This document shows positions 12,627 to 52,867 of a stretch of DNA of 64,000 bases, piece by piece. The position numbers and the translations under genes are program-made. Position 1 is the stretch's first letter, and each line of letters starts with the position of its first letter. Source of the stretch: an uncultured bacterium (GTDB taxonomy: Bacteria > Oederibacteriota > JAAXVQ01 > JAUVAV01). The stretch is from NCBI GenBank assembly GCA_964630235.1, contig CAZVUO010000001.1, positions 127,419 to 191,418 of the forward strand, in the 5' to 3' direction. A model generated the notes under the pieces. The model saw only the letters and a list, made by a program, of their open reading frames with translations. It was not told where the DNA came from and did no database searches.

Positions 12627-12786
12627 AGCAGTAGAACAGTCGAACAGTAGACCGCCCCGACCGGAATGACCCATATGGACGCCTTCGGCGCCTCGGGACT
12701 CCCACCGGTCGCCCCGACCGGTTGGATATGGGACTCCCACCGGTCGCAGGTTCGCCTATTCTACTGTTCAACTGTTCTACTGCTCA
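12627..12786. repeat. composite element: 25-bp near-perfect inverted repeat (12627-12651 / 12762-12786) enclosing two direct-repeat pairs
   Basis: gagcagtagaacagtcgaacagtag versus ctactgttcaactgttctactgctc, one mismatch. Inside, cgccccgaccgg occurs twice and gactcccaccggtcgc occurs twice. Confidence 0.7.
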
Positions 12787-12792
12787 CCTGCT

Positions 12793-12841
12793 CCAGCGAC
12801 ATTGAATGGGAACAGAATTATTCCCATTCAATGGTCGCTGG
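12793..12841 (-). terminator. 20-bp stem hairpin overlapping the guaA stop codon
   Basis: ccagcgacattgaatgggaa / ttcccattcaatggtcgctgg with loop cagaatta. The TAA stop sits in the loop and the last 7 codons form one arm of the stem. Confidence 0.55.
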
Positions 12842-14365
12842 CGGTTTGGAGGAAATATCCAGCACCACGCGGTTGACGCCCCGCACTTCGTTGATGATAC
12901 GGTTGGAGACCCGCCCCAGCAGGTCTTGCGGCAGGTAAGCCCAATCCGCGGTCATGGCATCCTTGCTGGTGACCGCGCGCAGGGCCACGACGTTCTCGTA
13001 GGTGCGCTCATCGCCCATGACGCCGACGGTTTTTACCGGCAAGAGGACCGCAAACGCCTGCCACAGCCCGCGGTAGTGCCCGGCTTTTTTTACTTCCTGC
13101 AGGAAGATCGCGTCAGCCTTGCGGACCAGTTCCAGGCGCTCCGGGGTAATTTCCCCCAAAATGCGGACCGCCAACCCCGGACCTGGGAACGGATGGCGCC
13201 AGAGCATGTCCTCGGGCAGGCCCAGTTCCAGGCCCACGTGGCGCACCTCGTCCTTGAATAACTCGCGCAGCGGCTCCACCAGGCTGAAGCGCATTTTTTC
13301 GGGCAGCCCGCCCACGTTGTGGTGGGATTTAATGGTAGCCGAGGGGCCTTTTACCGAGACGCTCTCGATCACGTCCGGATAGATGGTCCCCTGCGCCAGG
13401 AAATCAAAGCTCCCGAGTTTTTCGGATTCGCGTTCAAAGACGGCGATGAACGCGGCGCCGATCCGCTTGCGTTTCTCCTCCGGGTCTTCGACGCCGGCCA
13501 GGGCGTCCAAAAATTCCTTGGTGGCGTCCACCACTTCGAGATTCATATCGTAATTTTTCCGGAACAACTGAATGATCGCCTCGGCCTCGCCTGCCCGCAG
13601 CAGGCCGTTGTCAATCAGCATGCAGGTCAGTTGGCGGCCGATCGCCCGGTGGAGGAGTACCGCGGCCACCGCGGAATCCACCCCGCCGGAGAGCCCAAGC
13701 AGAACTTTCTTGGTTCCCACCTGCCGGCGTATCCGCCCCACGCTTTCCTCGATAAAGGAAGCCGAGGTCCATGACCCTCGGCAGCCGCAGATGCCGTAGA
13801 GAAAATTTTTCAGGATCACCATGCCGTCCGCCGTATGCTCCACCTCGGGGTGGAACTGCAGGCCGTAGATCCTGCGCTGTTCGTCCGCAATCGCGGCCAT
13901 GGGCGCGTTCCGGGTTTGGGCCGCGACGCGGAATCCGGCCGGCAGCTGCGCCAGCCGGTCGCCATGGCTCATCCAGACCCGGGTTTTTCGGCTGAGGGCG
14001 CTGAACAGTGGATGGTCGCCCGTCAGCTCCAGTTCGGCGAAACCGAATTCCCGGTGGTCCGAAGGCTCCACCTTGCCGCCCAGCAGGTGGCCGATCAACT
14101 GCATGCCGTAGCAGATGCCCAGCACCGGGACACCCAGGCTGAACAGCCCGGCGGGGATGAGCGGGGCCTGTTCGGCGTACACCGACGCCGGGCCGCCGGA
14201 AAGGACGATGCCCTTGGGCGCCAGGTCCCGAACGCGGTCCCCGGAAAGGTGATAGGGGTGTATTTCGCAATAGACGTTCAGCTCGCGGATGCGGCGGGCG
14301 ATGAGCTGGGTATACTGAGACCCAAAGTCCAGAATCAGGATGAAGTCTTGGTGCGATGGCTGCAT
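12818..14365 (-). CDS. guaA: GMP synthase (glutamine-hydrolysing)
   Basis: [38 protein letters not shown]... GATase domain plus ATP-pyrophosphatase domain, 515 aa. Confidence 0.95.
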
Positions 14366-14435
14366 ATCTTCCCTCGGCGAAAAGGAGGAGAAAAATCACT
14401 GGCGGTTTCCGCGCCTGTGAACCAACTGTCCGGTT

Positions 14436-16061
<1,626 letters not shown>

Positions 16062-16235
16062 TTAGCAAAAGGTCCCATAAAAGTCAAGCCGCAGAACCCT
16101 GAAAAAACAAAGCCGGACAGGCGCTTCCGCACCTGCCCGGCTTTGGGATTGAACTCAATGAACAATTGAGCAATAGAAAACAGACCGCCATTGAGCTTTT
16201 CGTTGCTCTAATTGCTCAATTTGCTCAATTGCTCC

Positions 16236-16264
16236 GGAGCCTGAGCGGCTTAACGCTCAGGCTC

Positions 16265-16265
<1 letters not shown>
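16236..16265 (-). terminator. hairpin ggagcctgagcg-gcttaa-cgctcaggctcc abutting the groEL stop
   Basis: Perfect 12-bp stem directly 3' of the groEL TAG, followed on the transcript by the TTGCTCAAT repeat array. Confidence 0.5.
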
Positions 16266-17935
<1,670 letters not shown>

Positions 17936-17942
17936 TTAAGCC

Positions 17943-18233: not shown

Positions 18234-18262
18234 GGACACCTCCTGCCTCCTTATGAAAATAA

Positions 18263-20022: not shown

Positions 20023-20027
20023 GGGAC

Positions 20028-24897: not shown

Positions 24898-25066
24898 ACG
24901 CTCCTCGGGAATTTGAGCGGCGTATCGCTCAAATTCCGGAGCAATTGAGCAAATAGATCAATTGAGCAGGTGCATGCTCAATTGCGACCAGAGGAAGCCC
25001 CTATGGGCCATTCCGGTCGGGGCGGTCAATTGCTCAATGTGCTCGTTTTGCTCAGATTTAACTCCA

Positions 25067-26952: not shown

Positions 26953-26955
26953 GGC

Positions 26956-32470: not shown

Positions 32471-32668
32471 GGCTTTGATTATAAATCCCTTACCCCTCCG
32501 GGTCAATGTTACCAAACACCCGGTAACCGGCTAAACCACGTTTAACCTACGAACCGCCGAAAGGAGAAAGTGGAAAGGAGACCGCATTTGAGCTTCCGAT
32601 CTACTTTCCCCTCTCTACTGTTCAAATGCTCTGTAACCGCTCGGCTCAACCTGTCTGCGGCTGAGCGG

Positions 32669-33699
32669 TTACGGCCGCACGCCCCACCCGCGTAACTGTT
32701 CCCGCACCCGGGCCGCTCCCCACAAAGTGGCGCTCACCAGGGACTCCAGGTGCCCGTGGAGGGTACGTTCGTACTGCTTGCGTCGCGAAACGATATTCTT
32801 AAGGCTCGCCGCTGCCTGGCTGGGATCAAAGACCGGCTGCTCCAGTTCTTGCAGCAGGCGGTTCAGCTTGGGGTCTCGTCCAAAACCGGTGACCAGGGCA
32901 CCCGCTTGGATGCCGAGAATAAGGCCATGATAACGCTGGCTGAGCACAAGTTCCGCGCCCGCGAACATTCGTGCCGCGGGTTCCGGGGCCGAGGCAAAGC
33001 CACACTCGCGGAACAAGGCTAGGCGGCGCAGGCGCCCGAGCAGTTCCCTGTCTCCGCGGTTCCCGAGGGCCACGAAGCGGAGGTTGCGGCCAGCCGCCCG
33101 GGCAAGTGCGAAGATCTCCTCCAGCCAGGAGGGGACTTTATACTTCAGCCAATCCGCACGCAGGCATATGACCCAGGTTTTTCCCGAACGGTCTTTCTGC
33201 CAGGGCCGCAGCCATGCCAGATCACCGCCGGGTTGTACGCGCGCCGGCTCCAATCCCTGTTCCAGGCACCAAGCCGAACTTTCCGGATCGCGCGGGATCA
33301 CGAGGTCCACGCGGCGCAAGACCTGTTTCGCCAGCCAGCGGTTCCCTGCCCAGCGCAACGGGATGAAGCCCTGCCCCCACACGATCGTCCGCTTGCCCAG
33401 CCGCCGGGCCCAGTCCAGCAGGCCCAGGTAGTAAACCGGCGAGAAAGGGCCGGACACATCCTGCACCAGCCCGCCGCCGCCGGAAATAAAAACCCGGCAA
33501 CCCCGCAATTCACGCCAGAGAACGCCCGGCCGCCACCGGGCCGCGGCGCGGACGCGGTGCCGCTGTTGGGTGGCCGCCGGGTCCGCAGAGAGCACGGTGA
33601 TCTGTCCGCGCCACAGGGCCAGGGCGCGCAGCAGGCCTTCCAGGATCAACTCGTCGCCCTCGTTGCCAAAACCGTAATACCCGGAAACCAGGATGGTCA
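32669..33699 (-). CDS. csaB: polysaccharide pyruvyl transferase CsaB-like
   Basis: VTILVSGYYGFGNEGDELILEGLLRAL... matches the CsaB N-terminal signature. GTG start at 33699 with AGGGGAG upstream; the ORF-track extension to 33922 adds a non-homologous leader. Confidence 0.75.
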
Positions 33700-36781: not shown

Positions 36782-38227
36782 CTACCGCATGATCGCCAGC
36801 TTGCCGCGGCTGGACCGGCCTTCGGGATCGGTGATGATGTACAGGTAGACCCCGGAGGCCACGGCCTGGCCGCGGTCGTTGGTCAGCGCCCACTGGGCCT
36901 GTCCGGTGTCGCCGGGGTTTTGGGTCAGTCCGCCGTCCGCCGTCCATCCGGGCGGCAGAGCGGTGACGCGCCGGCCGTCAACCGTGTAAATGCGGATCGT
37001 GGCGTTGCGGCTCAAGTTCAGGAAGACCATCCGCGACCGCACCCAGGGCAGCTCGCCGTTCCAGGGGTTGGGATAGACGATGACCTGGTCCAGGTCCGGT
37101 GCGCTGCGCAGGGGCGTGGACGTGATGGTCACGGTCGGCGTGATGGTCGCCGTGGGACTGATGGTCGCGGTTGGCGAGATCGTGCTGGTCAAGGTCATGG
37201 TCCGCGTGGGCGTGACGGTCCGCGTGGGCGTGACGGTGGAGGTTCTCGTACTGGTGGGTGAAGCCGTGCGCGTCCGGGTAATGGTCGGCGTCGGCGTGCA
37301 GGTGCGCGTCAGCGTGATGGTGAAGGTTTGGGTCGGGGTATGCACGGGTGAATGCGTGCTGGTCGGGGAGATCGTGGACGTTCGCGTGATCGTCGGCGTG
37401 GCCGTGGCGGTCGGCGATTGGGTAAACGTCCCGGTCCGCGTGGCCGTGGGTGTGTGCGTCCTGCTCGCGGTATACGTGGGCGTGGGCGTGGCCGTGAGGC
37501 TGGGCGTGGCGGTCAGGGTGATCGTAAACGTCAGCGTGCGGGTGGCGGATTCCGTGGCCGTGGAGGTGGCGGAGGCGGTCGGCGTGCCTGTGGCCGAGGG
37601 CGTGGCCGTGCGGCTGGGCGTGGGCGTGTCCGTGAAGGTCGGCGTGCCGGCCGGAGTGGGCGTGAACGTGGAGGTAGGCGTGAAGGTCGGCGTGCCGACT
37701 TCCGTGGCATAAATGCAAAACCTGCTGCTGGGCAATACCCCGGTCGGCGTTCCAAAGGGGTCGGGAAAGGTTCCGTAGGTAAACGGGCTTCTGTCCCGGG
37801 TTTTCCAATAGTCAGGATCGCCGTCATAGATCGCGATGTAAACGGAATTGTTGGAAACCTGGTTGGCCAGCCAATAGGTCTCGCCGGCGGTTACGGCCGT
37901 AGTGGGGATCACGAAAGTGTTCCACCCGTTCACCAGGGATTGAGAAGCGCTTTGGGCCAGAAGGGTCCCTGGCGTATTGGGGCCGCCGTTCCCATAAATG
38001 GCTGCGCGTCCGTTGCCGCCCCCGGCATCCGTGATATACAGCAGGATCCGGTTGACAGTGCCCGTGGCCGGAGCATCAAACTGCGTAGCGGACAGATACC
38101 CTTGATTGTTATAGAGCGCGAGACTTCCGGTCCCCTGCTCGCCGAAGGTCACGGCGTCGGCCGGGACACCCAGCAGCAGCCCTAAGCCGGCGGCAGCCAA
38201 AATGTTTCGCCACTCCCAACGTCTCAT
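36782..38227 (-). CDS. secreted protein: conserved ~180-aa N-terminal domain (DUF4082-like?) + Thr/Pro-rich linker + C-terminal sorting-type beta-sandwich domain (paralog 1)
   Basis: Signal peptide. VTFGEQGTG...[24 protein letters not shown]...[23 protein letters not shown]... ~250-aa (T-P-T/S/R) low-complexity linker. C-terminus ...[10 protein letters not shown]...[11 protein letters not shown]...GVYLYIITD...GKLAIMR. Confidence 0.7.
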
Positions 38228-38249
38228 GCCCGCCCTCTTTCCGTGTATT

Positions 38250-39416
38250 TCATGGCGCGATGGCCATCTTTCCTCTGAGCCAACGGCGGCCCTGCTGATC
38301 CTCGAGCTGTATCCTTAGATAATACACCCCTGCGGCCAGTTCCCGGGTGGAAAACGCGGTGACCGCCCTGCCGTCCAGGCTGAAAGTCTCGTCCGTCACC
38401 AGCAGCACGCGCTCGCCGGCGGGGTTATACACCTCCACCCAGGCCCGCGTGGCGCCCGAACAGGCATAAGACAGCTGCACGCGCTCGCGCGCCGGCTGGG
38501 GGAAGACCCGCATGTCCTCCCCGGCCAGATCCGGCGCTGCGGTCAATGTGGCCGAGCGCGAGGACGCAGCCGCCGGTGTCAGGGTAGGGGTCACGGTTCC
38601 CGTGGGCGTGATGGTTCCGGTGGGCGTGATGGTCCCCGTGGGAGAGAGGGTCGGCGTTCGGCTGACCGTGGGTGTCATGGTCGGACTGTACACCGGCGAA
38701 CGCGTGCTGCTGACTGTGATGGTCCTGGTCCGGCTCGCGGTCGGGGTCGCGGTGCGCGTGGAGGTGCCGGTCGCGGTGCGCGTGATCGTAGGGGTCTGGG
38801 TCGGACTGTACACCGGCGACGGGGTGCCGGTCGCGGTGCGCGTGCGCGTGGCTGTAAACGTCGCCGTGCCGCCGGGCGTGGGCGTGGCGGTTCCCGTGAT
38901 CTCCGTGGCGTAGATGCAGAAGCGCCAGGGCTGCGCGCCCGTGGGAGAGCCAAAGGGAGCGGGGAAACTCCCGTACGCATACGGCCATCGCTCGCGGCTC
39001 TTGAAAAAGTTAGGATCGTCGTTATAGAGTCCCACGGTCGTAATGGTGTTGGAAAGCTGGTTGGCCAGCCAGTAGGTCGCCCCACTGGTCACGGCCGTTT
39101 CCGGGATCACGAAGGCGTTCCAGCCGGTGACCAGCGGTTGGGAGGCGCTTTCCGCCAGCAGCGCGCCCGGCAGATTCAGGCCGCCGTCGCCGTACAAAGC
39201 CACCCGGCCGCTGGCCCCTCCGGTCACCGTGACATAGAAGAAGATGCGGTTGACCGCGCCGGCCGCCGGGCAGCTGAACTGCGTGGCGGTCAGGAAATTC
39301 TGGTTGTCGTAGATTTCGTAGTTCCCCGTCCCCTGCTCGCCAAAGGTGACAGCCTCGGCGGTCGCGGCGGTTAGGGCCAGAGCCAGCAGCGCGAGGCCAG
39401 GGCCGCGAAAGGTCAT
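38250..39416 (-). CDS. secreted protein, paralog 2 of the preceding gene (same N-domain, shorter TP linker, same C-terminal sorting-type domain)
   Basis: [22 protein letters not shown] signal; N-domain ~55% identical to paralog 1; C-terminus ...[16 protein letters not shown]...[11 protein letters not shown]...GVYYLRIQ...GKMAIAP. GAGGGAG RBS 5 nt upstream of the ATG at 39416. Confidence 0.7.
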
Positions 39417-39429
39417 GGCTCCCTCTCGA

Positions 39430-41310
39430 TTAACGCACCACGACAAACTTTTTCTTGATCGTCCGCTTGCCCCCCGCGTCCTCCACCTGGAGGGTGGCGT
39501 AGTAGAACCCCGGCGCCAGGGCGCGGGTGTCCAGGTCCGTAACCGCGTTCCCGCGCACGGCCTGGGGCTGGTCCTCGACGCGGGCCACGATCTCGCCCGT
39601 GGCGTTGAAGATCACGATCTTGACCTGGCCAGGCCCTTCGAAATGGTAGATAAAGCGCGCCACCTCCCTGGCCGGCTGGGGAAAGACCACGCTTTCGTCG
39701 GACCGCAAGATATAGGGAGTCGTCGTGGATGTGATGGTAATGGTCGGAGTGATAGTCCTTGTAGGGGTAATCGTAGAAGTTGGCGTGAACGTGGAAGTAC
39801 GAGTAATCGTGGGCGTTGATGTTCTCGTTGGTGTTCTGGTACGTGTGGGAGTTATAGTAGGGGTCGGAGTGATCGTCGGTGTGGCAGTGTGGGTGGGGGT
39901 AATGGTCGGGGTCGGGAAGATGCTTAGAGCACGGAGCACATTAATTCGACCGCTGCCGATGGCTGATGAACTTCCAGAATCAACGCTATCGCAGTTACTT
40001 AGTATCCTCGTTCTGATTTGGGCTGATGTCATCGCGGGCCAGGCAAGCTTGATCATAGCGGCCAGTGCTGAAACCTGCGGGCAAGAAAAGGAAGTCCCAT
40101 CCACAGAACTCCAACCACCTGTGTTTGCAGTAGATGTGACACCGTTGTCTTCCGGAAACGAAGGATGATATTGTTGTAATGCCCCTCCAGGAGCGACACA
40201 GTCCAATCGCGAAGCATCGTAAGGGCTGCAGTAATTTGAATAATAGGTAATAAAATCCTCTGAGTCGGTTGCTCCGACACTCATAACACTCGCATAACAC
40301 GCAGGATACCGAGGCGCAGTTGCCAAATTAATATTCTCATTTCCTGCAGAGGCGACCATTAATTTGCCGGCGCTATTAGCGTAATTAATTGCCGTCAAAA
40401 TCGTGGCTGAATCAGTGCCGGTGGTGAAACTCATGCTCAAGATATCCGCCCCATTATCTACAGCCCAGGTAATCCCATCCGCGATATCAATAAATGTTCC
40501 AGCGGCGTCTTGGTCCAGTACTTTTACGGGCATGATCTTCACCCGGTTATCATAAGCTGTTCCCGCAATCCCGCTGCTATTGTTAATAATGGCTGCGATC
40601 GTGCCCGCAGCGTGTGTGCCATGTCCATAAATTGGGCGGCCGCCGAAAAAGATATTGTCATCGTTGGTATTTGTGTTGTTAAGGATTACGTTGTATCCCG
40701 GAACCAACCGACCGGAAAATTCAGCATGGTCGGCGTCAACACCCGTATCTAAAACCGCCACCACCACCTGCTGGGTGTTGAAAAAATAATTAGCCGCTTT
40801 AGCCGCGTCCCCACGCGTGCGGTTGATCCACCATTGCGTAAACCCATTTACATAATAAGTGTCGTTGAATGAACCTCCGATAGGTGTATAGGTAGTTGAA
40901 ATAGCCGCTGCGTAAACACGGCCATTAGGCTCGATGGCTTCGATTATTGCGTTCCCTCGCATGGCAGCCAACGCAGAAGCCACTGATTGCCCTGCGGGGA
41001 GTTCCAATAGATTCCAGTCTTTCAACCTCGTTTGACGCTTTACCCGAGTTTTAAAATGACGGTGAAATGCCGCCTCCGCAGTTGCGATATTTATGGCACT
41101 GGCTTGTACCTGGGTATTAAATCGCATACGGTCTTCCGCAGTTAGAACACTCTTATACTTGACTAATATTTCACCCTCAAAGTAGTCATTTGTCTTTTGG
41201 CAGGGATGCGGAAGAATTGGCATACCTGTTTTATCCGGACGATTGGCGGAAAACACCACTGAGGGGTAAAGGGCAATTATTAATATCAACAATCGGGAAA
41301 TACAGTTCAT
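39430..41310 (-). CDS. secreted S8 subtilisin-like serine protease + TP linker + C-terminal sorting-type domain (AT-rich gene)
   Basis: Signal MNCISRLLILIIALYPSVVFS; catalytic triad contexts VAVLDTGVDADHAEF / HGTHAAGTIAA / GTSFSCPQVSALAAM; TP-rich linker; C-terminus ...[17 protein letters not shown]...GFYYATLQVEDAGGKRTIKKKFVVVR. GGAGAGGTG RBS before the ATG at 41310. Confidence 0.85.
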   Translation of the reverse strand: MNCISRLLILIIALYPSVVFSANRPDKTGMPILPHPCQKTNDYFEGEILVKYKSVLTAEDRMRFNTQVQASAINIATAEAAFHRHFKTRVKRQTRLKDWNLLELPAGQSVASALAAMRGNAIIEAIEPNGRVYAAAISTTYTPIGGSFNDTYYVNGFTQWWINRTRGDAAKAANYFFNTQQVVVAVLDTGVDADHAEFSGRLVPGYNVILNNTNTNDDNIFFGGRPIYGHGTHAAGTIAAIINNSSGIAGTAYDNRVKIMPVKVLDQDAAGTFIDIADGITWAVDNGADILSMSFTTGTDSATILTAINYANSAGKLMVASAGNENINLATAPRYPACYASVMSVGATDSEDFITYYSNYCSPYDASRLDCVAPGGALQQYHPSFPEDNGVTSTANTGGWSSVDGTSFSCPQVSALAAMIKLAWPAMTSAQIRTRILSNCDSVDSGSSSAIGSGRINVLRALSIFPTPTITPTHTATPTITPTPTITPTRTRTPTRTSTPTITRTSTFTPTSTITPTRTITPTITITSTTTPYILRSDESVVFPQPAREVARFIYHFEGPGQVKIVIFNATGEIVARVEDQPQAVRGNAVTDLDTRALAPGFYYATLQVEDAGGKRTIKKKFVVVR

Positions 41311-41518
41311 TGTCGCACCTCTCCCTTTATAATAAGCATGTCCAAGTATAACAAGGCTTCCTATGAGAGGCAAGAGGTGCCGCCTCATTCTTTTAATTAA
41401 AATACCGACAAAACAAAGCTTTTTGTTTGCGTTTTGGGCACAATTCAAATACCCTTTTAAATATATAGAACATATTAGTAATTGATCGGGTTAATGAATG
41501 ACTCTCCAGGAGGAATCA

Positions 41519-44500
41519 TGGACAAATATTATAAAAACGGTTTGTTGTGGGTTACCCTTCTTTCCCTTGCAAGCGTCCCTTACCTATCAAGTCAAATATT
41601 CCATCACGAACAGGGCGAAGGCTTAATAAAAAATCAATCCGAGTGTTTTAACCATAGCAATGACAGATTGATTTATTTATCAAAAACTTTAGTACACCCC
41701 AAAGTCCTGCGGGCGGGCGCAACTAAATCCTGGATTGATAAAGCTCTTGAAACAATTGAAAATTATGAATATTTAGTGACCCACATTTCAGCGCGTCCCC
41801 AAGCAACCAATAGGCAACAAAATTTTCGTTCTTTTTTTGAACCTCAGGGAGTCACACTGCATCCTCGTGGTTTATCACAACGAAACCAGCATCGAGAACA
41901 TTCGAAGTCGTCATTAATAAATCGAAACAATAAAAATGTTCCACTTCCATCATGGAAGTGGAAATGGGAGACTAAAGAATTTGGCAGACGAGGTCTTTTA
42001 CACCCAATTTCCCCAGCCAAACCCATAATTAATGGCAATCGTGTAGAATATAATCGAGGTCCAATAACAGAGTGGTATGAAAACCGCCCGGAAGGTTTGG
42101 AACAAGGATTTATTATATTTCAAAGGCCAACTATTTCTGCAACCACTCTATCTTCAACTAATTTACCTAATAATGAATGGGTTATTATTGCTTCACATGA
42201 AATACAGGATTTGAAATTACGGCTCTCCTTCGATAATAAAAGCATATACTTTCTTGATAATAACCAAAATATTGTACTGGAATATGGGCAACTATTAGTT
42301 AAAGATAGAAATCAACATATATTACCCTCTAAATTGGGGGTTGAAAATAACAGGATTATTCTATCTTTTTCCGATAAAAATGCTACCTATCCCATAGTTA
42401 TTGATCCTTTACTAACCGCCCCCTCTTGGGCCAGAGAAAGTAATCAGGCCTTCGCTTTCTTTGGTTGTAGTGTAGCAAGTGCAGGAGATGTCAATGGTGA
42501 TGGATTTAGTGATGTACTTATTGGCGCATATGGTTTCGATAATGGCGAATCTGGCGAAGGACGCGCTTTTGTTTATCACGGAAGCGCATCCGGCCTTTCT
42601 TCAGTACCAAATTGGTCCGCAGAAGTTAATCAAGCTGACGCCCATTTCGGATGGTCGGTTTCTTCGGCCGGAGATGTTAATGGCGATGGATTTAGTGATG
42701 TAATTATCGGAGCCTACAAATATGATAACGGTGAAACCGACGAAGGCCGAGTTTATGTTTACCATGGTAGTCCATCAGGCCTCACTGTTTCACCCAATTG
42801 GACCGCCGAAGGTAATGAATCGAATGCTGTTTTCGGGTATTCCTTGGCTACCGCCGGTGATGTCAATAATGACGGTTATAGCGATATATTAATTGGTTTT
42901 AGAAATCACGTGTGCGTTTTTCACGGCAGTTCGACCGGCCTATCCAACACCCCCGCTTGGCTATACACAAACAATCAACCTGATTCCAACTTTGGCTATT
43001 CTGTAGCAGGAGCCGGAGATACCAATGGTGATGGGTTTAGCGATATTATCGTTGGGGATCATGGATTTGACAATGGTGAAACAAATGAAGGTAGTGCATA
43101 TGTCTTTCTCGGGAGCCCCACGGGTGTTACTACTACAGCCTTCTGGACTGCCGAAAGTAATCAAGCAGAGGCCTGGTTTGGCTTTTCCGTAGCCTGTGCG
43201 GGCGATGTTAATGGCGATGGATACAGTGACGTAATCATTGGGGCCCCCTATTGCGATAATCCCGAAACAAGTGAAGGCTTGGCATATGTATTTCATGGTA
43301 GTACATCGGGTCTTGCCCCTGTAGCATCATGGGTAGCCGAAAACAATCTTGCATTTAACTTTTTAGGATATTCCGTGTCCGGTGCTGGTGACATTAATGG
43401 AGATGGTTTCGGCGATGTTCTTGTTGGTATCCGCGGATATGACAATGGTCAGTCAGATGAGGGGCAGGCGTGCGTTTATCACGGAAGCGCAAGCGGACTT
43501 GCTACCGCACCATCATGGTCTGCCGAAGGCAACCTCGAATACAGCAGTTTCGCTAACGCTTTATCTAGTGCCGGCGATGTTAATGGCGATGGTTATAGCG
43601 ATGTAATTATTGGTGCATCGACTTATGATAATGGCGAAGCAGACGAGGGCCGGGCGTTCGTATTCAACGGAAGTGCTGTTGGTTTGACCCCAACCGCTTA
43701 TTGGTCCAACGAGAATAACCAGCCAGGTTCGCGACTGTCTACTTCCGCCGCTTATGCAGGAGACCTGAACGGTGATGGTTATAGTGATTTAATTGTAGGA
43801 GCCCCTTATTATGACGGAGTTTATAACGAAGCTGGCCGAGTGTATATTTTTCTTGGTAAATATGAAGGATTAAGTTTGACTGCCAACCAAACTATAGATG
43901 GTGGGATAGCCAGCGCTCTTTTTGGTTCTTGCGTATCGACGGCAGGCGATGTAAATGGCGATGGATTTTGCGATGCAATTGTTGGGGCCCCACATTTTAG
44001 TAATGGCGAAAGCAACGAGGGAATTGCTTATGTGTTTTATGGAAACGCCACCGGTCTTAATGCGAGTGCTTCATGGTCTTTTGAAAGTAATCAGATCGGC
44101 GCTCAATATGGATCTGCCGTATCTTCTGCTGGTGACGTAAACGGGGATGGATATGCAGATGTTTTAATATCATCGCCTTTTTATAACAACCTCGGAAGAG
44201 TATATTTATTCTTAGGTGGCGCCTCTGGCCTAGATAGTAATCCAGCTTGGTATGCCGAAGGAGATCAGATTAATGCGCAATTTGGCTCTGCAATCTCAAG
44301 TTGTGGAGACGTTAATGGTGATGGTTTTGCCGATATCGTTATCGGTGCCCCATTCTATGATAACGGCCAAACTGACGAGGGACGTGCGTTCGTATATTTG
44401 GGTCATTCAGGCGGATTAAGCAACCTTCCTGTATGGACCACCGAGAGCGGTCAAGCAGATGCGCAATATGGCCGTTCTGTTTCTTCGGCCGGAGATGTAA

Positions 44501-45708
44501 ACGGGGATGGTTATAGTGATGTGGTCATAAGCGCACCGTTTTACGATAATACCCAGAGCAACGAAGGTCGCGTATATGTCTATCACGGAAATGCCAACGG
44601 CTTGATCGCAACTCCTTCGTTTGCAGTTGACAGTGGTCAGAATAATGCTCAATTTGGCTGCTCAGTGGCTAGCGCAGGAGATATAAACAACGATGGATAT
44701 TGCGACATCATTATCGGCGCTTATCAATTGAACAATGGCCGTGCATACATATTCTTCGGTAGTACTAGCGGTCTGAACATCACCGCGAATTACTTCATAG
44801 ATGGCGACCAATCCGGTTCACAGTTCGGATATTACGTGGCTGGCACTGGAGACGCCAATGGCGATGGATACAGCGATGTGATTATTGGTGCGCCTTATTA
44901 TGATAATGGCCAAACCGACGAAGGAAAAACATTTCTCTATTACGGAAACGAAGGTGTCGCGACACGTCAGTTGCCACGCCAGATACGGCCAAGTAATAAC
45001 ACAGCAATCGGGCCTTCCGGATTAGCGGCCGCCTCAATTGCAAACACCGAATTCCTTGTCCGTTTGTTTTCAAAGGGAAGCCAAGGTCGATCTCGTTCAA
45101 AATTACAGGTTCAAATTTCCTCGCCAAGCCAACCAATTTCAACCGGAATCATTTATTCACAATCTTCATATACAGATACGGGGGTGGCGGGACTAGATCT
45201 AAATTTCATTGTTGGTGGTCTAAATCCTCAAAAGGCATATAATTGGAGAGCCCGTTTACTATACGATCCAAGTCAGAATAATAACGGTCAGCTTCATAGC
45301 CCATGGTATAGATTGTCATGGGGAAGTTTGAATGGTAACGCAGATTTCCGCACCGGGCCAGCGGCCCCTGCAACACCAACTCCAACACCCATTCCAACTA
45401 TATTGCCACCAGAAGATTTTCAGGGTCAGTTAATCGACAGTAAACACTTCTTTGTTTATCCAAATCCTGCCCGTGGGACGAATGTAAAATTCAAGTTTTT
45501 CCTGAAACAGGCAGCAACTGTAAAAATAAAAATATTTACCCCTCAAGGAAAATTTGTATGGGAAAAAGTAAATGAATATCCGCTTGGTTGGAGTGAAATA
45601 ACTTGGAACGCATCAGGAATGGCTAACGGTGTATATTTTTATATTGGAGAAGCTAAAAATAGCTTATACCAAGATAAAATCACAAAAAAGCTTGGTCTTG
45701 TTAAATAG
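41519..45708 (+). CDS. giant (1408 aa) secreted FG-GAP/integrin-alpha-type beta-propeller repeat protein with C-terminal sorting-type domain (AT-rich gene)
   Basis: About 18 repeats of ...F.G.SV..AGDVNGDGFSDVIIGA...DNGE.DEGRAFVY.GS..GLS... C-terminus FFVYPNPARGTNVKFKFFL...KIKIFTPQGKFV...GVYFYIGEAKNSLYQDKITKKLGLVK. AGGAGG RBS before the ATG at 41519. Confidence 0.85.
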
Positions 45709-45815
45709 CCGTTTTTTTTTACCGATTTATCGTTAGCTGTTTTGTTATCTGCGAATTGTTCTTAACTGTTCTCGTTATTTTTCGAGTCGCATCTGTTAGG
45801 CGAATTGCTTTCCTA

Positions 45816-45845
45816 TTTACAAAAATGCTCTTCCAAGCCTATAAT
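45816..45845 (+). promoter_or_regulatory. sigma70-like promoter (TTTACA-N18-TATAAT) upstream of the DUF4870 gene
   Basis: tttacaaaaatgctcttccaagcctataat, 45 bp upstream of the ATG at 45892. Confidence 0.45.
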
Positions 45846-45891
45846 ATCGGCAATTTCAGCTGTATGGCTTCACCCCAGGAGGAAACACCCC

Positions 45892-46251
45892 ATGTCCGTG
45901 CATGCCCATCACGAGGGCCACAGCGACCTTGGCACGACCAAGTCCGGCCTGGACCCCACGGTCGCGGCCGCCCTGGCCTATCTGCTGGGATTTGTCAGCG
46001 GCATTCTCTTCTATATCATCGAGAAGCACAATCCGTTTGTCCGTTTCCACGGCCTGCAGTCCACCATCTTCTTCGGCGGCTTGTTCGTGATTGTGGCCGT
46101 GCTGCACCAGATCCCCATTCTGGGCTTTATCCTCAATTTCATCATCCTGTTGACTGCTTTCGTCATCTGGCTGTTCCTGATGGTCAAAGCCTCCCAGGGC
46201 ATCGCCTTCAAACTGCCCTTTATCGGCGACCTCGCGGAACGCAATCTGTGA
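45892..46251 (+). CDS. DUF4870-family small membrane protein
   Basis: MSVHAHHEGHSDLG... then ...YIIEKHNPFVRFHGLQS... with 3 TM helices. AGGAGG RBS. Confidence 0.65.
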   Translation: MSVHAHHEGHSDLGTTKSGLDPTVAAALAYLLGFVSGILFYIIEKHNPFVRFHGLQSTIFFGGLFVIVAVLHQIPILGFILNFIILLTAFVIWLFLMVKASQGIAFKLPFIGDLAERNL

Positions 46252-46393
46252 ACTTCCCTGCAGCGACTTATGGGCCGTCCTTTAGGACTTGCTGCAGGGA
46301 ATCCGGAGATCATACCCCGGAACCGTGCCGCTTTCATTCACGCAACCAGCTGTGGCATTCGGTGAAGGGGTATAGGCCTGGAGCTGTCCCCGC

Positions 46394-47143
46394 ATGCTGA
46401 ACGGCTTGCGCATTGCCGTGGTCCTGCCCGCCTACAACGCGGCCAAAACCCTGGACCAGACCTTCGCTGAAATCCCCCGCGACACCGTGGACGAGATCAT
46501 CCTGGTGGACGATCACAGCCGGGACAACACCGCAGACAAGGCCCGGCAGCTCGGCATCGAAACGCACCGGCACGAGGCCAACCTGGGATACGGCGGCAAC
46601 CAGAAAACCTGCTACCGGCTGGCCCTGCAGAAGCAGGCCGACATCGTGGTCATGCTCCACCCCGATTACCAGTATACGCCCAAGCTCCTGCGCGCCATGT
46701 GCGCCATGATCGCGGACGGCGCCTACGACGTGGTCCTGGGCTCGCGTATTTTAACCGGCGGTGCCCTGCACGGCGGCATGCCGCTGTACAAGTATCTCAG
46801 CAACCGCGTGCTCACCCTGGTGGAAAACTGGCTGCTTGGCGCCAAACTCTCTGAATACCACACCGGCTACCGGGCCTACCGCCGCGAAGTGCTGGAGAAG
46901 ACCCCCTTCGACAAATTTTCCAATGACTTCATTTTCGACAACCAGTTCCTGATCGCGGTCATCCAGCAGGGCTGGCGGCTGGGCGAGCTCTCCTGCCCGA
47001 CCCGCTATTTTCCCGAAGCCTCCTCGATCAACTTCGGCCGCAGTTTGCGTTACGGCATCCTCTGCCTGTGGTACGCCTTAACCGCCAGCTGGTCCCTGCT
47101 GCCCCGCCGCCTCCGCAAGCTGTTCGGCCCACGCGCGTCCTGA
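46394..47143 (+). CDS. family 2 glycosyltransferase (dolichyl-phosphate mannosyltransferase-like)
   Basis: IAVVLPAYNAAKTLDQTF...DEIILVDDHSRDNTADKARQLG... with DxD context; 249 aa. Confidence 0.8.
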   Translation: MLNGLRIAVVLPAYNAAKTLDQTFAEIPRDTVDEIILVDDHSRDNTADKARQLGIETHRHEANLGYGGNQKTCYRLALQKQADIVVMLHPDYQYTPKLLRAMCAMIADGAYDVVLGSRILTGGALHGGMPLYKYLSNRVLTLVENWLLGAKLSEYHTGYRAYRREVLEKTPFDKFSNDFIFDNQFLIAVIQQGWRLGELSCPTRYFPEASSINFGRSLRYGILCLWYALTASWSLLPRRLRKLFGPRAS

Positions 47144-47439: not shown

Positions 47440-47459
47440 TCGCTTCGGAAGCGGATAAA

Positions 47460-47512
47460 ATAGAACGGGCGGTCGGGCCACAGCAGGCCTGACCGCCCGT
47501 TCTATTTTTAAT
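47460..47512 (+). terminator. rho-independent terminator (15-bp stem then T-run)
   Basis: atagaacgggcggtc...gaccgcccgttctat followed by tttttaattt. Confidence 0.7.
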
Positions 47513-47552
47513 TTCCTGTTCTCCTGCTCAACTGCTCAAATGCTCTGAAAAA

Positions 47553-47586
47553 ATCCTCCGGCGCCTAAGCGCCGGACGATTTTTTC
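47553..47586. terminator. bidirectional terminator hairpin tccggcgc-ctaa-gcgccgga flanked by A-run and T-run; the ruvX stop codon lies in the loop
   Basis: aaaaaatcc upstream and cgattttttcc downstream. The ruvX TAG is the complement of 47565-47567, inside the loop. Confidence 0.6.
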
Positions 47587-47996: not shown

Positions 47997-49669
47997 CACA
48001 TCCTGCCCGAGCGCAGGATGGCTAAGATCAAGAGCAGACCGAACACGCCGGCCAGCACGAACCCCGCGAGTCCCAGCACCGAGAACCCGCCCCACTGGGG
48101 GCCGATCTGGGATGCAAGGATCCAGGCCGAACCCATGATCAGGGCCGCGACGACCAGGGCCACGGAGAGCCGGTTGCCCGTGCGATCCAGGTCGTACCGC
48201 AGGTCCTCCAACCCTCTGTGCTCGAACTCCATCTTAAAACGGCCGCGCTGGAGCTTGTCCAGCAGATCCTGCAGACGGGCTGGCAGACTGCTCATGAAGC
48301 GGCGCAGGTCCTGCATCTGTCTCACGGCCCGCTCGGCCAGCTGGCGGGGCTCGTAACGGCGCCGCATAATGGCCGTGGCCATGGGTTGGGCGGCCTCAAC
48401 CAGGTTGAGCTTGGGGTTGAGCCTGCGCGCCATGCCTTCGGCGCCCAGGAACGTCTTGACCAGGACCACGAAGTCAGCGGGCAGCTGGATGCGGTGCTTG
48501 AGCGAGAGTTCCACCACCTCCTGCAGGGAACTGCCCACGGAGATCCGGGCGACCGGCAGATCGTAATATTGTTCCATGAACAGCGCGGCATCGCGGGCCA
48601 GACTCCGTCGGTCCAAGCCTTCCTCCGCGGTGCCCAGACGCAGATAGGCGTCCACCAGGGCCTCGGTGTCCTGGTTGGCCAGGGCGAGGAGCATATCCGT
48701 GAACGCGGCCACGGTCTCGCTGTCCAGGCGCCCGACCTGTCCGGCGTCAATGAACGCCAGCTTGCCGGCCGGGGTCAGCAGGAAATTCCCCGCGTGCGGG
48801 TCCGCGTGGAAAAAACGGTCCTCCAGGGCCATGTAGATATAGGCGTCAATCAGGTTCTGGGCGAGCTGCTTCCGCCTGTCCGCCGAAAGTCCGGGCAGCG
48901 CCTGGCCGAGCTTGCGGCCGGGAATGAACTCGAGGGTCAAACAGCGCGGCGTGGACAGGTTCCAGTAGACCTTGGCGAACTGATATCCCGGCCGGTCCTT
49001 GAAGTTCCGCGCCAGGCGCTCCAGGTTGCGGCCCTCGCGCAGGAAATCCAGCTCGGCCTGGATCAACTGCTCGAATTCGTCCACGAATTCCACGGGGCGC
49101 CGGGGCAGGGTTTCGGGCTGGATCTTTTCCCAGGCCCGGGCGAGGAAGCGGATGATTTGCAGGTCGGATTCCACGCGGCGCCGCAGGTCCGGCCGCTGAA
49201 GCTTGACCACGACCTGGCGCCCGTCCCGGGTCACGGCCCGGTGCACCTGGGCGATCGAAGCCGCGGCCAGAGGTTTGGCTTGAAAGGATTTGAACAGGCG
49301 GGCCACTGGAGCGCCCAGTTCCCCGCGGATCAGCGCCTGGGGCGTGGGCTGGGTGAACGGCGCCACCCGGTCCTGCAATTTGGACAGCTCCTGCACGTAG
49401 GCCGGCGGCAGCAGGTCCGGCCGCATGGACAGCACTTGCCCCAGCTTGATGAAGGTCGGCCCCAGTTCCTCCAGGGTCTGGCGCAGGCGGGCGGGAACGC
49501 CGGCCTTGGGCTTGGGCGGACGCGTGACCCTGGCCTTGGCCGGCAAATACGCTCCCAGCTGCAGCTGCGAAACCAGGAAACCGAACCCGTGCTTCGTGAG
49601 AATGGCGGCGATCTCGCGCAGGCGGTTGAGATCCTGGATCGCGTTGCCCAGGCCGGGAAGGGGAGGCAC
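47996..49669 (-). CDS. ABC1/UbiB-family atypical protein kinase
   Basis: ...FKSFQAKPLAAASIAQVHRA... FIDAGQVGRL... kinase-like motifs and a C-terminal TM helix; 557 aa. Confidence 0.8.
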   Translation of the reverse strand: MPPLPGLGNAIQDLNRLREIAAILTKHGFGFLVSQLQLGAYLPAKARVTRPPKPKAGVPARLRQTLEELGPTFIKLGQVLSMRPDLLPPAYVQELSKLQDRVAPFTQPTPQALIRGELGAPVARLFKSFQAKPLAAASIAQVHRAVTRDGRQVVVKLQRPDLRRRVESDLQIIRFLARAWEKIQPETLPRRPVEFVDEFEQLIQAELDFLREGRNLERLARNFKDRPGYQFAKVYWNLSTPRCLTLEFIPGRKLGQALPGLSADRRKQLAQNLIDAYIYMALEDRFFHADPHAGNFLLTPAGKLAFIDAGQVGRLDSETVAAFTDMLLALANQDTEALVDAYLRLGTAEEGLDRRSLARDAALFMEQYYDLPVARISVGSSLQEVVELSLKHRIQLPADFVVLVKTFLGAEGMARRLNPKLNLVEAAQPMATAIMRRRYEPRQLAERAVRQMQDLRRFMSSLPARLQDLLDKLQRGRFKMEFEHRGLEDLRYDLDRTGNRLSVALVVAALIMGSAWILASQIGPQWGGFSVLGLAGFVLAGVFGLLLILAILRSGRM

Positions 49670-49686
49670 GGAAGCGTCCTGCCTGG

Positions 49687-50020
49687 TCAGCGTTTCTTCT
49701 TTTTAGACTTGGACTGCGCTGCGGTCTTGGCCGCCAGTTGGCGTTCCAGCTGCTGAATCCGCTGCTCCATTTTTTTGAGCTGGGCTTGCGTGGCCAGGTT
49801 CATCTTTTGATAGGCGGCCGAAACCTGGACGCCCACGGTTTTTTGCACATCCTTGCGCGCGGCGTCCGCTTTGCGCATGACATCGGCCAGGACTTTTTTG
49901 CCTTCCTGCTCGCGGATCTGTCCCTGCTCCACCAATTCCTTGACCACGCGCTGGGCCCGCTCTTTGGTCAGGCTCAGGGCGCCTACCCCGGCGAGAAACG
50001 CTTTTTTGATGATATCCTGC
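49687..50020 (-). CDS. phasin-like coiled-coil protein
   Basis: MQDIIKKAFLAGVGALSLTKERAQRVVKELVEQGQIREQEGKK...KKKKR, 111 aa. GGAGG RBS before the ATG at 50020. Confidence 0.5.
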
Positions 50021-50224
50021 ATGGATGCCTCCTGAAAGGGTGGAATAACCTGCCGGCTCGCTGAGCCGTTATGCGCGCTTCCCGCTTTGCGGGAAGCAGA
50101 GCTTTTGATCAGGCGAACAGTTGAACGGCAGATGACCGCGTGGAGACCAATTCCCACCTGCACAAATGCGGCCGCGGTCCCCCAGAGGGGTTATTCCGGC
50201 CGGGGCGGTCTGCTGTTCACTTGC

Positions 50225-52867
50225 TCAGCTGTTCATTTTTGGATTGAACTTCCTAAATACTTCATTAATATACCGTTCTTCCAAAACGTTGGCCAATTTC
50301 GAGGGATCTTTCAATCCGCCTTGGCCGAAATCAGGACGCCCCCCCGCCGACCCTCCAAAAGGAGAGACCAGAGCCTTAAGGAATTCACCATTGTTGAATC
50401 CGCCATTGACCACAGAGGCGGTGGCCGTGGCGGCAATAAAGGTCTTATCGTTGAAGATACTGCCTAACACGATGAAGCCGTCATCCATTTTCCCCTTCAA
50501 CGCGTCAGCCGCCGTGCGCAACGCATTGGCGTCGAGGCCGGGCAACTCCGCGGCGACGTAATAATAATCTCCGATTTTCTTCCTTTGTTTCAATAATTCA
50601 TCAACATTCTTGCCGGCCTGCTTGGCCTGCAGCTTTTCCCGCTCCTTCTCCAGTTCGCGCACGCGGGCCGCGAGCTTCTCCACCCGGGCAGGCAGTTCGG
50701 CGACCTGCACGCGGAGGGTGTCCGCCGCATCGCGCAGCAGGCGCTGTTCCCGTTTGGTTTCGCGGTAGGCCGCCTCGCCGGTCACGGCCTCGATGCGGCG
50801 CACGCCGGCCGCCACGCTGGCTTCGGCCAGGATGCGCAGCTGCCCGATCTCTCCGGTGGCGCGGACGTGCGTGCCGCCGCAAAGTTCGCAGGAAATCTGG
50901 TCCACGCTCACCATCCGCACCCAGTCGCCATACTTCTCTCCGAACAAAGCCATGGCGCCCCGCGCCTTGGCTTCCTCGATGGACAGCTCCTCCACCGACA
51001 CCGGCGCGTTCTCCCGGATATGCGCGTTGATGATATCCTCGATCCGGTCCAGCTCGCGGGGGCTAACCGCCTGGAAATGCGAAAAATCGAAGCGGAATCC
51101 ATCCGGCCGCACTTCCGATCCCGCCTGCTCCACGTGTTTCCCCAACACCTGCCGCAGGGCGGCGTGGAGCAGGTGCGTGGCCGTGTGGTTCCGGGCCGTG
51201 GCCGCGCGTTCGGGGTTCCGCACGCTCGCGGTCAAGGCGCGCCGTGTCTCCAGCACGCCGTGCATGACGCGCCCCGCGTGCAAATACGCCCCCGCCGGGC
51301 TTTTTTGGACATCGGTGATCTCGACGGTCAGGTTCCCGGCGGTCAGTTCGCCCTGGTCCGCCACTTGCCCGCCGGACGCGGCGTAAAAAGGCGTGGTGTC
51401 CAGGATCACCGTCACTTCGCTGCCGGCCGGCGCGGACTCGCAGCGCGCCTCGCCGCAGAGAATGGCCAAGACCGTCGCGTCCGCCTTAAGCTGCTGATAG
51501 CCCACGAAGCGGGTCGGTCCGGTTTGGGCTTCGAGCTGCTGGATGACGGGCGAAAACGCGCGTTCGCCGCTGCCCACCCAGGCGGAACGCGCCCGGTCAC
51601 GCTGCTCCTCCATGGCCTGCTGGAACCCCGCCTCGTCCAGGCCGAGCTTGTGTTCCTGGGCGATCTCGCGGGTCAGGTCCAGAGGGAATCCGTAGGTGTC
51701 GTAAAGCTGGAAGATCCGCTTGCCGGGAATAACGGTCTTCTTCTGGGCCTTCACCTCGGCGATGATGTCGTTGAGAATGGCCAGACCGGAATCGAGTGTA
51801 TGCTGGAACCGCTCCTCTTCGCTGCGCACCACGGCCTCGGCGTGCGCGGCGCGCTCCACCAGCTCCGGATAGGCGCCGCCCATCAACTGGGCCACGCCGG
51901 GCACCAGCCGGTGGAGAAACCGCTCGTTGAGACCCAAGAGCTTGCCGTGGCGCACGGCCCGGCGCACGATGCGCCGCAGCACGTAACCGCGGCCTTCGTT
52001 CCCAGGCAGCACGCCGTCCGAGATCAAAAAGGCCGCGCAGCGCACGTGATCGGCGATCACCCGCAGGGAACTGTCCGTCTTGGGGTCCTTGCCGTAGCGG
52101 GACATGGTCTCCCGGGCGATGGCCTGGATGAGCGGCTGGAACAGGTCCGTGTCGAAATTGGAGGGTACGCCCTGGTGCACGGCGGCCAGCCGTTCCAGCC
52201 CCATGCCGGTGTCAATATTCTTCTGGGGCAGGGGGGTGAGGGTCCCGTCCGCCTGCCGGTCGTACTGCGTGAATACCAGGTTCCAAACCTCCAGGTAGCG
52301 GTCTTCGTCCTGGTCCGGCCCGGCTTCCGGCTTGCCGGGCTTGGGGCCGATATCGTAGAGGATCTCGCTGCACGGGCCGCAGGGGCCGGTCTCTCCCATG
52401 GTCCAGAAGTTGGTCTTCTCGCCCATGCGCACGATGCGTTTTTCCGGCACGCCCACCTGGTTTTTCCAGATACCGAAGGCCTCGTCATCCTCGCGGTGCA
52501 CGGTGATCCACAGTTTTTCCTTCTCCAGGCCGATGGCGTTCACCAGGAAATCCCAGGACCATTGGATGGCTTCGGATTTGAAGTAATCGCCGAAGGAGAA
52601 GTTTCCCAGCATTTCGAAGAAGGTATGGTGGCGCGGGGTAAAGCCCACGTTTTCGATGTCATTGGTCCGCACGCATTTCTGGGAGGTCGCGGCGCGGGTA
52701 TAGGGCTTGGGCACAGTGCCGAGAAAGTAGGGTTTGAACTGCACCATCCCGGCCACGGTGAACAGGACGGTCGGGTCAGCCGGAACCAGGCTCGCGCTGG
52801 GCCGGATGGTGTGCCCCTGGGCCTTGAAGTAGTCCAGATACTTTTGACGGATCTCATTGCTGGTCAT
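50225..52867 (-). CDS. alaS: alanyl-tRNA synthetase
   Basis: MTSNEIRQKYLDYFKAQGHTIRPSASLVPADPTVLFTVAGMVQFKPYFLG...; 880 aa with editing and C-Ala domains. Confidence 0.96.
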   Translation of the reverse strand: MTSNEIRQKYLDYFKAQGHTIRPSASLVPADPTVLFTVAGMVQFKPYFLGTVPKPYTRAATSQKCVRTNDIENVGFTPRHHTFFEMLGNFSFGDYFKSEAIQWSWDFLVNAIGLEKEKLWITVHREDDEAFGIWKNQVGVPEKRIVRMGEKTNFWTMGETGPCGPCSEILYDIGPKPGKPEAGPDQDEDRYLEVWNLVFTQYDRQADGTLTPLPQKNIDTGMGLERLAAVHQGVPSNFDTDLFQPLIQAIARETMSRYGKDPKTDSSLRVIADHVRCAAFLISDGVLPGNEGRGYVLRRIVRRAVRHGKLLGLNERFLHRLVPGVAQLMGGAYPELVERAAHAEAVVRSEEERFQHTLDSGLAILNDIIAEVKAQKKTVIPGKRIFQLYDTYGFPLDLTREIAQEHKLGLDEAGFQQAMEEQRDRARSAWVGSGERAFSPVIQQLEAQTGPTRFVGYQQLKADATVLAILCGEARCESAPAGSEVTVILDTTPFYAASGGQVADQGELTAGNLTVEITDVQKSPAGAYLHAGRVMHGVLETRRALTASVRNPERAATARNHTATHLLHAALRQVLGKHVEQAGSEVRPDGFRFDFSHFQAVSPRELDRIEDIINAHIRENAPVSVEELSIEEAKARGAMALFGEKYGDWVRMVSVDQISCELCGGTHVRATGEIGQLRILAEASVAAGVRRIEAVTGEAAYRETKREQRLLRDAADTLRVQVAELPARVEKLAARVRELEKEREKLQAKQAGKNVDELLKQRKKIGDYYYVAAELPGLDANALRTAADALKGKMDDGFIVLGSIFNDKTFIAATATASVVNGGFNNGEFLKALVSPFGGSAGGRPDFGQGGLKDPSKLANVLEERYINEVFRKFNPKMNS

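Follow-up and report, generated by a model that had tools for sequence, protein, structure and literature searches.

The window analysed here is a 64-kb stretch of contig CAZVUO010000001.1 from an uncultured bacterium whose GuaA has its best named relatives in metagenome-assembled genomes (MAGs) of the candidate division FCPU426, an uncultured candidate phylum without described non-coding elements. It contains the gene orders groES-groEL-guaB-guaA-yjbQ-dnaE and recX-alaS-phasin-ABC1-ruvX, and in both of them synteny with the related loci is well preserved. Following guaA, groEL, a tetratricopeptide repeat (TPR) gene, csaB, ruvX and alaS, all assigned with Pfam support, we found six copies of a repeat that carries tandem octamer arrays. 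These arrays are the arms of a modular intergenic element of 90-180 nt in FCPU426, which occupies six of the 13 curated intergenic regions of at least 120 nt in the window.

A first-pass annotation of the sequence had described at least eight sites with two to four tandem TG(C/T)TCAA units at a period of 8-9 bp, directly after stop codons and usually beside a hairpin. We could verify the arrays at 12626-12651 (-), 12757-12793 (+), 16197-16234 (+), 24939-24968 (-), 25031-25053 (+), 47517-47545 (+) and 50214-50234 (+), with 8 nt as the prevailing period and 9 nt as the remainder, and the position after a stop codon and next to a hairpin is right for the six real loci. The opposite arms at 16151-16172 (-) and 50098-50131 were absent from the earlier list. 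The site at 32615-32633 does belong to the family, as its centre motif and hairpin are kept, and is a decayed copy with two units only. The one at 45735-45774 behind the FG-GAP gene was dropped, since its two TGTTC are spaced by 10 nt within an island rich in AT, it lacks both the centre motif and the opposite arm and it gives no match to the covariance model described below.

The pattern TGYTC-N3-TGYTC is found 12 times in the whole window, where dinucleotide-preserving shuffles lead one to expect 0.23. As gene calls by length of the open reading frame (ORF) or by GC content at third codon positions (GC3) proved unreliable, we used a hand-curated intergenic map, supported by Pfam and synteny and covering 5.8% of the window, and compared the frequency of the motif in intergenic and coding DNA with correction for composition. 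The motif stays enriched between genes: 18 of the 19 TGYTC pairs with spacers of 3-4 nt (period 8-9 nt) are intergenic, and dinucleotide shuffles of the intergenic DNA gave a mean of 0.05 such pairs and never more than one. Because these shuffles used intergenic DNA alone, the enrichment holds after correction for its lower GC content, which is 54% compared with 61.5% for the whole window (and not the 65% given before for the genome).

On one strand the parts of the element follow each other in the order H1, RGA, three to four GARCA-N3 units (L4-L1), an A-rich spacer, the centre and the right units. H1 is a hairpin with a sequence unique to each locus, usually overlapping the upstream stop codon, and the centre reads (GCTC)NNNTGC-GG-TC, followed by two to four N3-TGYTC units (R1-R3). 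A multiple alignment of 12 copies from eight genomes yielded the consensus GAGCAnTTGAGCAGnnGAACAGnTGAACAG...AAGCTCAnCTGCGGTCTnCTGTTCAnCTGCTC, in which G-GGTC is invariant. Within the pentamer TG-TC (GA-CA on the other strand) is nearly invariant, the middle base is either purine or, on the other strand, either pyrimidine, and the 3-nt spacers are variable; the number of units per array ranges from two to five. Two arm subtypes, GAGCAGGTGAGCAGTAGAACAG and GGAGCAATTGAGCAAAT, occur across genomes and their distribution follows neither GuaA identity nor host relatedness. The covariance model of the family, built from the alignment of the 12 copies, recovers all six window copies, two of which (50095-50239 and 47450-47549) had been outside the training set, and reveals a further copy at the groEL 3' end of a related locus, L058. 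A reading of TGCGGTC as an uptake signal (DNA uptake sequence or uptake signal sequence) was rejected, as there are 20 copies of it where 13 ± 3.7 would be expected, and a single one of them lies within an element.

Some copies contain an additional hairpin insert X of the form GCGACC-N3-GGGAGTCCC-N8-30-CCGGTCGGGGCG. It is present in five carriers, namely elements 1, 3 and 6 of the window (element 1 with two tandem X), the FCPU426 copy L027 and the alaS copy of L057. X was found at TGCG^GTC only, with GCG on both sides, and nowhere else in the fetched DNA, and its stem CGRCC:GGYCG covaries in the alaS copy. As the four orthologous elements at guaA (L049, L051, L053, L059) are without X, it was added at this site in the lineage of the window.

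Folding of the elements gave z-scores of -3.9 to -10.4 relative to shuffles. The computed fold consists of H1 and of S2, a long imperfect helix between the left and the right array; once X is removed, element 1 forms a perfect 28-bp stem. RNAalifold additionally identified a helix S1 between the first left unit and the segment just 5' of the central GG. At fixed anchors S1 is 81-92% paired compared with 19-33% in slid controls, four of its six pairs show changes on both sides, and the three bases of the spacer change in concert (GGT/ACC, GGC/GCC, AAT/ATT, ATT/AAT, TTT/AAA and GTT/AAC). The GCA/TGC pairing, constant in the other copies, is replaced by ACA/TGT in L055. Within the left arm the pre-centre 6-mer matches the first left unit best in 12 of 12 copies. 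A simple palindrome was rejected for this reason, as the pre-centre segment pairs with the outermost and not with the innermost left unit. The inner left units are instead the S2 partners of the right arm. On the MAFFT alignment RNAalifold missed this arm-arm helix owing to the unit register, and S2 was specified by hand; it is 73% paired compared with about 40% in slid controls and shows double changes in 13 of 26 pairs. S1 and S2 are therefore interleaved (a-b-a'-b') and represent either a pseudoknot or two mutually exclusive folds, an order unlike that of terminal inverted repeats. When the 5' part is folded without the right arm, S1 forms in 10 of 11 copies; folding of the full length yields S2, which is much more stable. 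The arrays are thus two strands of helices within a larger ordered element, and not autonomous iteron-like arrays as had been considered.

Compensated changes are also seen in H1. At guaA it is made of the last guaA codons and an inverted copy of them, has 15 bp that are 97% paired over five orthologous copies, and all three variable third-codon positions are compensated by the other arm. It also tracks the element, being present in the five genomes that have the element at this site and absent from L060 and L061. At groEL a C:G to T:A change between the window and L058 is compensated. Coordinates of all window copies are collected in Table 1.

Table 1. Parts of the six element copies in the window (positions of the window; scores of the covariance model in bits)
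Copy (flanking genes)	Part	Position	Strand	Score	Remarks
1 (guaA / yjbQ)	H1	12800-12833	-		5' arm formed by the last guaA codons (TIEWE); stop codon in the loop
1	Left arm L4-L1, GARCA-N3 units	12757-12794	-		Inverted repeat with 12625-12651, 27 nt, 96% complementary
1	Pre-centre segment C, ACCTGC	12746-12751	-		Complementary to the first left unit (S1)
1	Two tandem X, GCGACC-N3-GGGAGTCCC...CCGGTCGGGGCG	12652-12745	-		Within the centre TGCG^GTC
1	Right arm R1-R3, TC + N3-TGYTC x3	12626-12651	-		Ends ~24 nt before the likely yjbQ start
2 (groEL / guaB)	H1	16236-16265	-		Begins at the groEL stop codon
2	Body	16151-16235	-	62	Left arm 16197-16235, centre GCTCAATGGCGGTC 16183-16196, right arm 16151-16182
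2	Separate canonical terminator after the element	~16108-16150			
3 (TPR gene / NAD-synthase-like gene)	H1	24908-24937	+		Antisense to the flanking genes
3	Body	24938-25056	+	35	Left arm 24938-24972, pre-centre GCTCAATTGC 24976-24985, X ~24986-25023, GGTC and right arm 25024-25056
4 (csaB / ABC ATPase), decayed	Whole copy	32551-32673	-	64	H1 32634-32673 over the csaB stop codon, two left units 32612-32634, centre GCTCAAATGCGGTC 32580-32593, right arm diverged
5 (ruvX, convergent with a small ORF), truncated	Whole copy	47517-47586	-	24	H1 is the ruvX terminator 47547-47586; four left units 47517-47546; no proper centre or right arm
5	Hairpin alongside	47460-47505			Holds GGGCGGTC/GACCGCCC
6 (alaS / phasin)	Whole copy	50077-50235	+	47	Antisense to the genes; H1 50077-50097, left arm 50098-50131, spacer, pre-centre GCACAAATGC 50160-50169, X 50170-50207, right arm 50209-50235

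To see how far the family extends, 185,579 species genomes were scanned with a core-plus-array pattern. From the 42 loci obtained 41 are chance matches in high-GC genomes, and the single real one, L027, belongs to an FCPU426 MAG. The same kind of scan in Joint Genome Institute (JGI) metagenomes returned one match, a chance match at 74% GC, and two viral pattern scans gave no match or a chance match. Scanning Rfam 15 at gathering threshold returned RNase P only, and E-value scans of two elements returned noise.

In the related loci the guaA 3' end carries the element in L049 (GuaA identity 89%), L051 (79%), L059 (77%) and L053 (75%, GC 48%) as well as in the window, thus spanning genomes of 48-62% GC, and it is absent from L060 and the outgroup L061. 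The groEL site is occupied in the window and L058, degenerate in L053 and reduced to a remnant in L049; this near-empty site resembles an internal deletion (GGAACGGTTC) and not a clean empty site. At alaS the element is present in the window and L057 and absent from L055 and L056, and at ruvX it is present in the window, decayed in L057 and again absent from L055 and L056. In L055 (3860-4215) rnpB, the gene of RNase P RNA, is succeeded at once by two tandem copies, each with a terminal T-run; the window rnpB (53669-54046, -) has an ordinary terminator hairpin instead. Six copies in the 64-kb window compare with zero to two per 21 kb in more distant relatives, and the pentamer is retained in genomes of 45 to 62% GC. 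From this comparison the copies are old and mostly inherited vertically, sometimes lost or remodelled, and the family is more abundant in the clade of the window. The earlier description as a genome-specific cis-element is correct with regard to a dispersed, non-coding repeat at gene 3' ends, but the repeat is lineage-specific, being found in several FCPU426 genomes.

With somewhat less than even confidence, we favour the view that this is a lineage-specific structured intergenic element similar to repetitive extragenic palindromic (REP) sequences and bacterial interspersed mosaic elements (BIMEs), which like the enterobacterial repetitive intergenic consensus (ERIC) sequences are families of stem-loops, and probably a 3'-end or intercistronic stem-loop module in the transcript, a function which we infer from its position and pairing. 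Every site lies between co-directional or convergent genes, and at all five independent sites without X the element is in sense orientation, its H1 being placed on the stop codon of the upstream gene (one-sided 0.5^5 = 0.03). The element would be transcribed with the upstream gene, as 3' untranslated region or intercistronic part, and H1 and S2 would, as stable structures at the 3' end, define or shield the ends of transcripts and separate adjacent cistrons from each other. This might happen by selective RNA processing and stabilisation (SRPS), as has been proposed for REP, and where a T-run follows the element it may cause termination as well. During transcription S1 would form first and be displaced once the right arm emerges, while the phased pentamer probably reflects arm growth by 8-nt slippage as well as recognition by some factor. 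There is precedent for this in operons whose transcript stability depends on 3' stem-loops (PMC4423207, PMC8219983). Like the stem-loops known from cistron 3' ends in SRPS operons (PMC4423207, PMC8219983), the FCPU426 element places a stable hairpin right after the stop codon of a cistron and keeps it by compensatory change, for example at guaA in guaB-guaA-yjbQ-dnaE. In contrast to it, those are single, unrelated hairpins that do not form a repeat family and have neither phased motifs nor a second set of helices.

Several points weigh against this reading. Three sites with X (TPR gene, alaS, L027) are antisense to their flanking genes, and a promoter scan for the antisense copies predicted none. 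No strand asymmetry was found: the strand that starts with H1 has 29 mismatches of G·U type and 27 of A·C type, and the folding energies of sense and antisense strands are nearly equal. Neither measure thus points to an RNA role on a given strand. At its purine/pyrimidine position the pentamer shows no covariation between the two arms, and this agrees better with recognition of the sequence by some factor than with selection for the helix alone. Moreover, the copies are kin (paralogues and orthologues), so that the shuffle controls overstate their independence, and several segments behind the S1 and H1 counts were excised by hand at fixed anchors.

The closest known systems are REP, BIME and REP doublets forming hairpins (REPINs) from Escherichia coli and Pseudomonas, which are likewise short, high-copy, extragenic, dyad-symmetric and hairpin-forming (PMC3116915, PMC3733652). 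They share with the FCPU426 element the position after stop codons between co-directional or convergent genes, the modular build with optional inserts and the long life at orthologous sites, and for REP roles in mRNA stabilisation and termination have been proposed. With 18 of 19 pairs between genes, six copies in 64 kb and inverted-repeat arms, the FCPU426 element is a high-copy extragenic palindromic repeat in the sense used for REP. Unlike REP, which is one palindrome of 20-40 bp, its arms are tandem units of 8-9 nt, and the constant GTAG or CGTC tag by which REP is recognised (PMC3733652) is lacking: GTAG is found within arms of the 'CAGT' subtype only, and the 'CAAT' subtype (16151-16235, 24938-25056, L051, L059) is without it. 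A further difference is the locus-specific first hairpin together with two interleaved complementarities, where REP forms a nested hairpin, and a REP-associated tyrosine transposase (RAYT) is not known for the FCPU426 lineage.

Dispersed arrays of short direct repeats are also formed by the cyanobacterial short tandemly repeated repetitive (STRR) heptamers. The TAACTGA heptamer sets of Beggiatoaceae, Cyanobacteria and Bacteroidetes resemble the FCPU426 arrays in their many intergenic sets of two to six tandem copies, a unit of 7-8 nt and unrelated flanking genes; no function has been assigned to them, and the involvement of an RNA-binding protein is suspected (PMC4679880). However, these are exact heptamers in direct, mostly lone arrays, located mostly just before start codons. 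In contrast to both TAACTGA and STRR repeats, the FCPU426 unit is a conserved pentamer with free spacers and a period of 8-9 nt, which forms complementary pairs around a centre at gene 3' ends.

Best placed among the alternatives, and in our estimate unlikely, is a non-autonomous mobile element of the REPIN type or of the type of miniature inverted-repeat transposable elements (MITEs). Its arms would be terminal or subterminal inverted repeats with multiple sites for a transposase encoded elsewhere, the X-bearing copies would be active, the short ones deletion derivatives or relics, and any effect on RNA would be secondary. The dispersed multi-copy nature of the element, its higher density in the window than in distant relatives, its patchy presence (with empty alaS and ruvX sites and the groEL remnant) and the spread of both arm subtypes regardless of GuaA identity are all consistent with mobility. 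The same is true for the arms of one copy being 96-100% identical, for the nesting of X at one exact point between two GCG, for the alaS copy that has supplanted the gene's own stop codon and for Watson-Crick pairing without wobble bias; long vertical persistence is also known for REPINs (PMC8049555, PMC3116915). On the other hand, no target-site duplication was seen when the flanks of the window sites and of the L049 groEL site were inspected by eye, no transposase or RAYT was identified in the 64-kb window and the loci of about 21 kb, and no insertion sequence (IS) with the same ends is present in the window or the fetched loci. H1 is locus-specific and at guaA consists of coding sequence of the host, so that it cannot have arrived with the element. 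The a-b-a'-b' order is unlike terminal inverted repeats, sites are shared by genomes with 75-89% GuaA identity, and the Logan assemblies of this population all carry identical elements without any polymorphism.

Improbable in our view is that the arrays are binding sites for a sequence-specific protein. This could be a binder of double-stranded DNA (nucleoid-associated or of ribbon-helix-helix type, with one pentamer per 8 bp) or a multimeric RNA binder of TRAP/HutP type that reads the phased GARCA/UGYUC and chooses between S1 and S2. TRAP reads 11 (G/U)AG triplets, HutP reads UAG in three plus three copies, and the met-boxes of MetJ are 8-bp arrays. The FCPU426 element is similar to these systems in its short motif with spacers of 2-4 nt, in the alternative RNA helices beside the repeats (TRAP, HutP) and in the 8-bp period (MetJ), but they are found in 5' leaders or operators of one regulon and not at dispersed 3' ends. 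A phased repeat next to alternative helices is the layout of protein-mediated attenuators such as TRAP and HutP, and two alternative helices do stand beside a phased repeat here. In favour of protein binding is also the near-invariance of TG-TC (GA-CA) next to a free middle base and free spacers, for which only the orthologous arms count as independent evidence as the set of pentamer units was selected by similarity to the motif, and the retention of the pentamer over the range of GC contents given above. Against it, 8 and 9 nt spacings are mixed in one array, which does not favour a cooperative binder of duplex DNA, the unit lacks palindromic symmetry, no protein could be identified as a candidate, and binding to DNA leaves the spacer covariation and H1 unexplained. 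As the flanking genes (guaA, groEL, alaS, ruvX, csaB, rnpB) share no function, a specific regulon is unlikely. MetJ met-boxes, the sole known 8-bp operator array, have strict spacing and a palindromic unit; a MetJ-type operator array was rejected on account of the mixed spacing, the non-palindromic unit and the location at 3' ends of unrelated genes.

A bolder form of the favoured reading, to which we give slightly less credence again, would be a new class of structured cis-acting RNA at FCPU426 gene ends. Here a hairpin and two interleaved helices (a pseudoknot or an S1-to-S2 switch) would surround the invariant GG, and a multimeric protein reading the GARCA/UGYUC repeats would set the fold and hence read-through, processing or stability of many housekeeping operons, amounting to a global TRAP-like control of operon polarity. 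Both a mobile origin and protein binding are compatible with an RNA role and do not exclude each other or it.

A reading of the copies as plain intrinsic terminators, or as products of neutral slippage resembling microsatellites, without meaning at the family level is very improbable and already largely refuted, since a T-run ends only some copies (L055 after rnpB, L059, 50235-50240), canonical terminators adjoin elements 2 and 5, and slippage, which would explain the varying unit number, does not lead one to expect ordered parts, a centre with invariant GG-TC, covariation in S1 and elements conserved between genomes. A standard intrinsic terminator was likewise rejected, as H1 is followed by RGAGCA and not by Ts in five of six window copies, and the earlier proposal of a terminator-associated repeat does not hold for most copies: H1 is usually without a T-run, and a T-run follows a minority of right arms.

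The covariance model, the ordered architecture and the conserved sites at guaA, groEL and alaS provide a handle on the organisation of transcript ends in FCPU426. Among REP-like repeats the element is unusual in its interleaved covariation and in a hairpin that co-evolves with the last guaA codons. If the RNA-switch or the protein-binding reading is true it would represent a new mode of control at the operon level, and should it be selfish, arms built of octamers and a fixed internal point of insertion would mark it as a new type. Contig breaks are explained by the repeats as well, and gene callers may be misled by them. In both the window and L057 the alaS stop codon TGA (50225-50227 and 579-581, respectively) lies inside an octamer unit, CAGC-TGA-GCA; approximately the last five codons of AlaS thus derive from the repeat. 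For yjbQ (157 aa; 12601-12625) and the phasin gene (158 aa; 50024-50163) the starts of the longest ORFs intrude into the element, and judged by orthologues and Shine-Dalgarno sites the real ones are at ~12601 and ~50023.

L060, which is without the guaA element, has about 5 kb of extra genes between yjbQ and dnaE (12178-17228), containing AAA_14/DUF4143, TrmO, a histone-deacetylase-like gene and a fragment of an IS110-type Transposase_20. Elsewhere in the window a 125-nt repeat with two GC-rich hairpins is present in inverted orientation at 631-755 and 6176-6300 (92% identical), the latter copy being preceded by a consensus promoter TTGACA-N17-TATGAT at 6129-6157. It has no Rfam match, folds no better than shuffles (z = -0.3) and may represent either a small-RNA gene that was duplicated or a further family of repeats. 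Two adjoining paralogous genes at 36782-39446 have no Pfam match, are rich in GTG-rich repeats of 6, 12 and 18 nt and have common blocks of 223 nt and 83 nt with ~72% identity. The low-GC island at 39430-46400 (GC3 0.34-0.52 compared with ~0.8 elsewhere) encodes an S8 peptidase with a Por secretion tail, a 1408-aa FG-GAP protein of 186-nt repeats and a DUF4870 gene, and looks horizontally acquired. Finally, a 42-nt overlapping palindrome between two genes of the - strand (59946-60023) is probably a bidirectional terminator.

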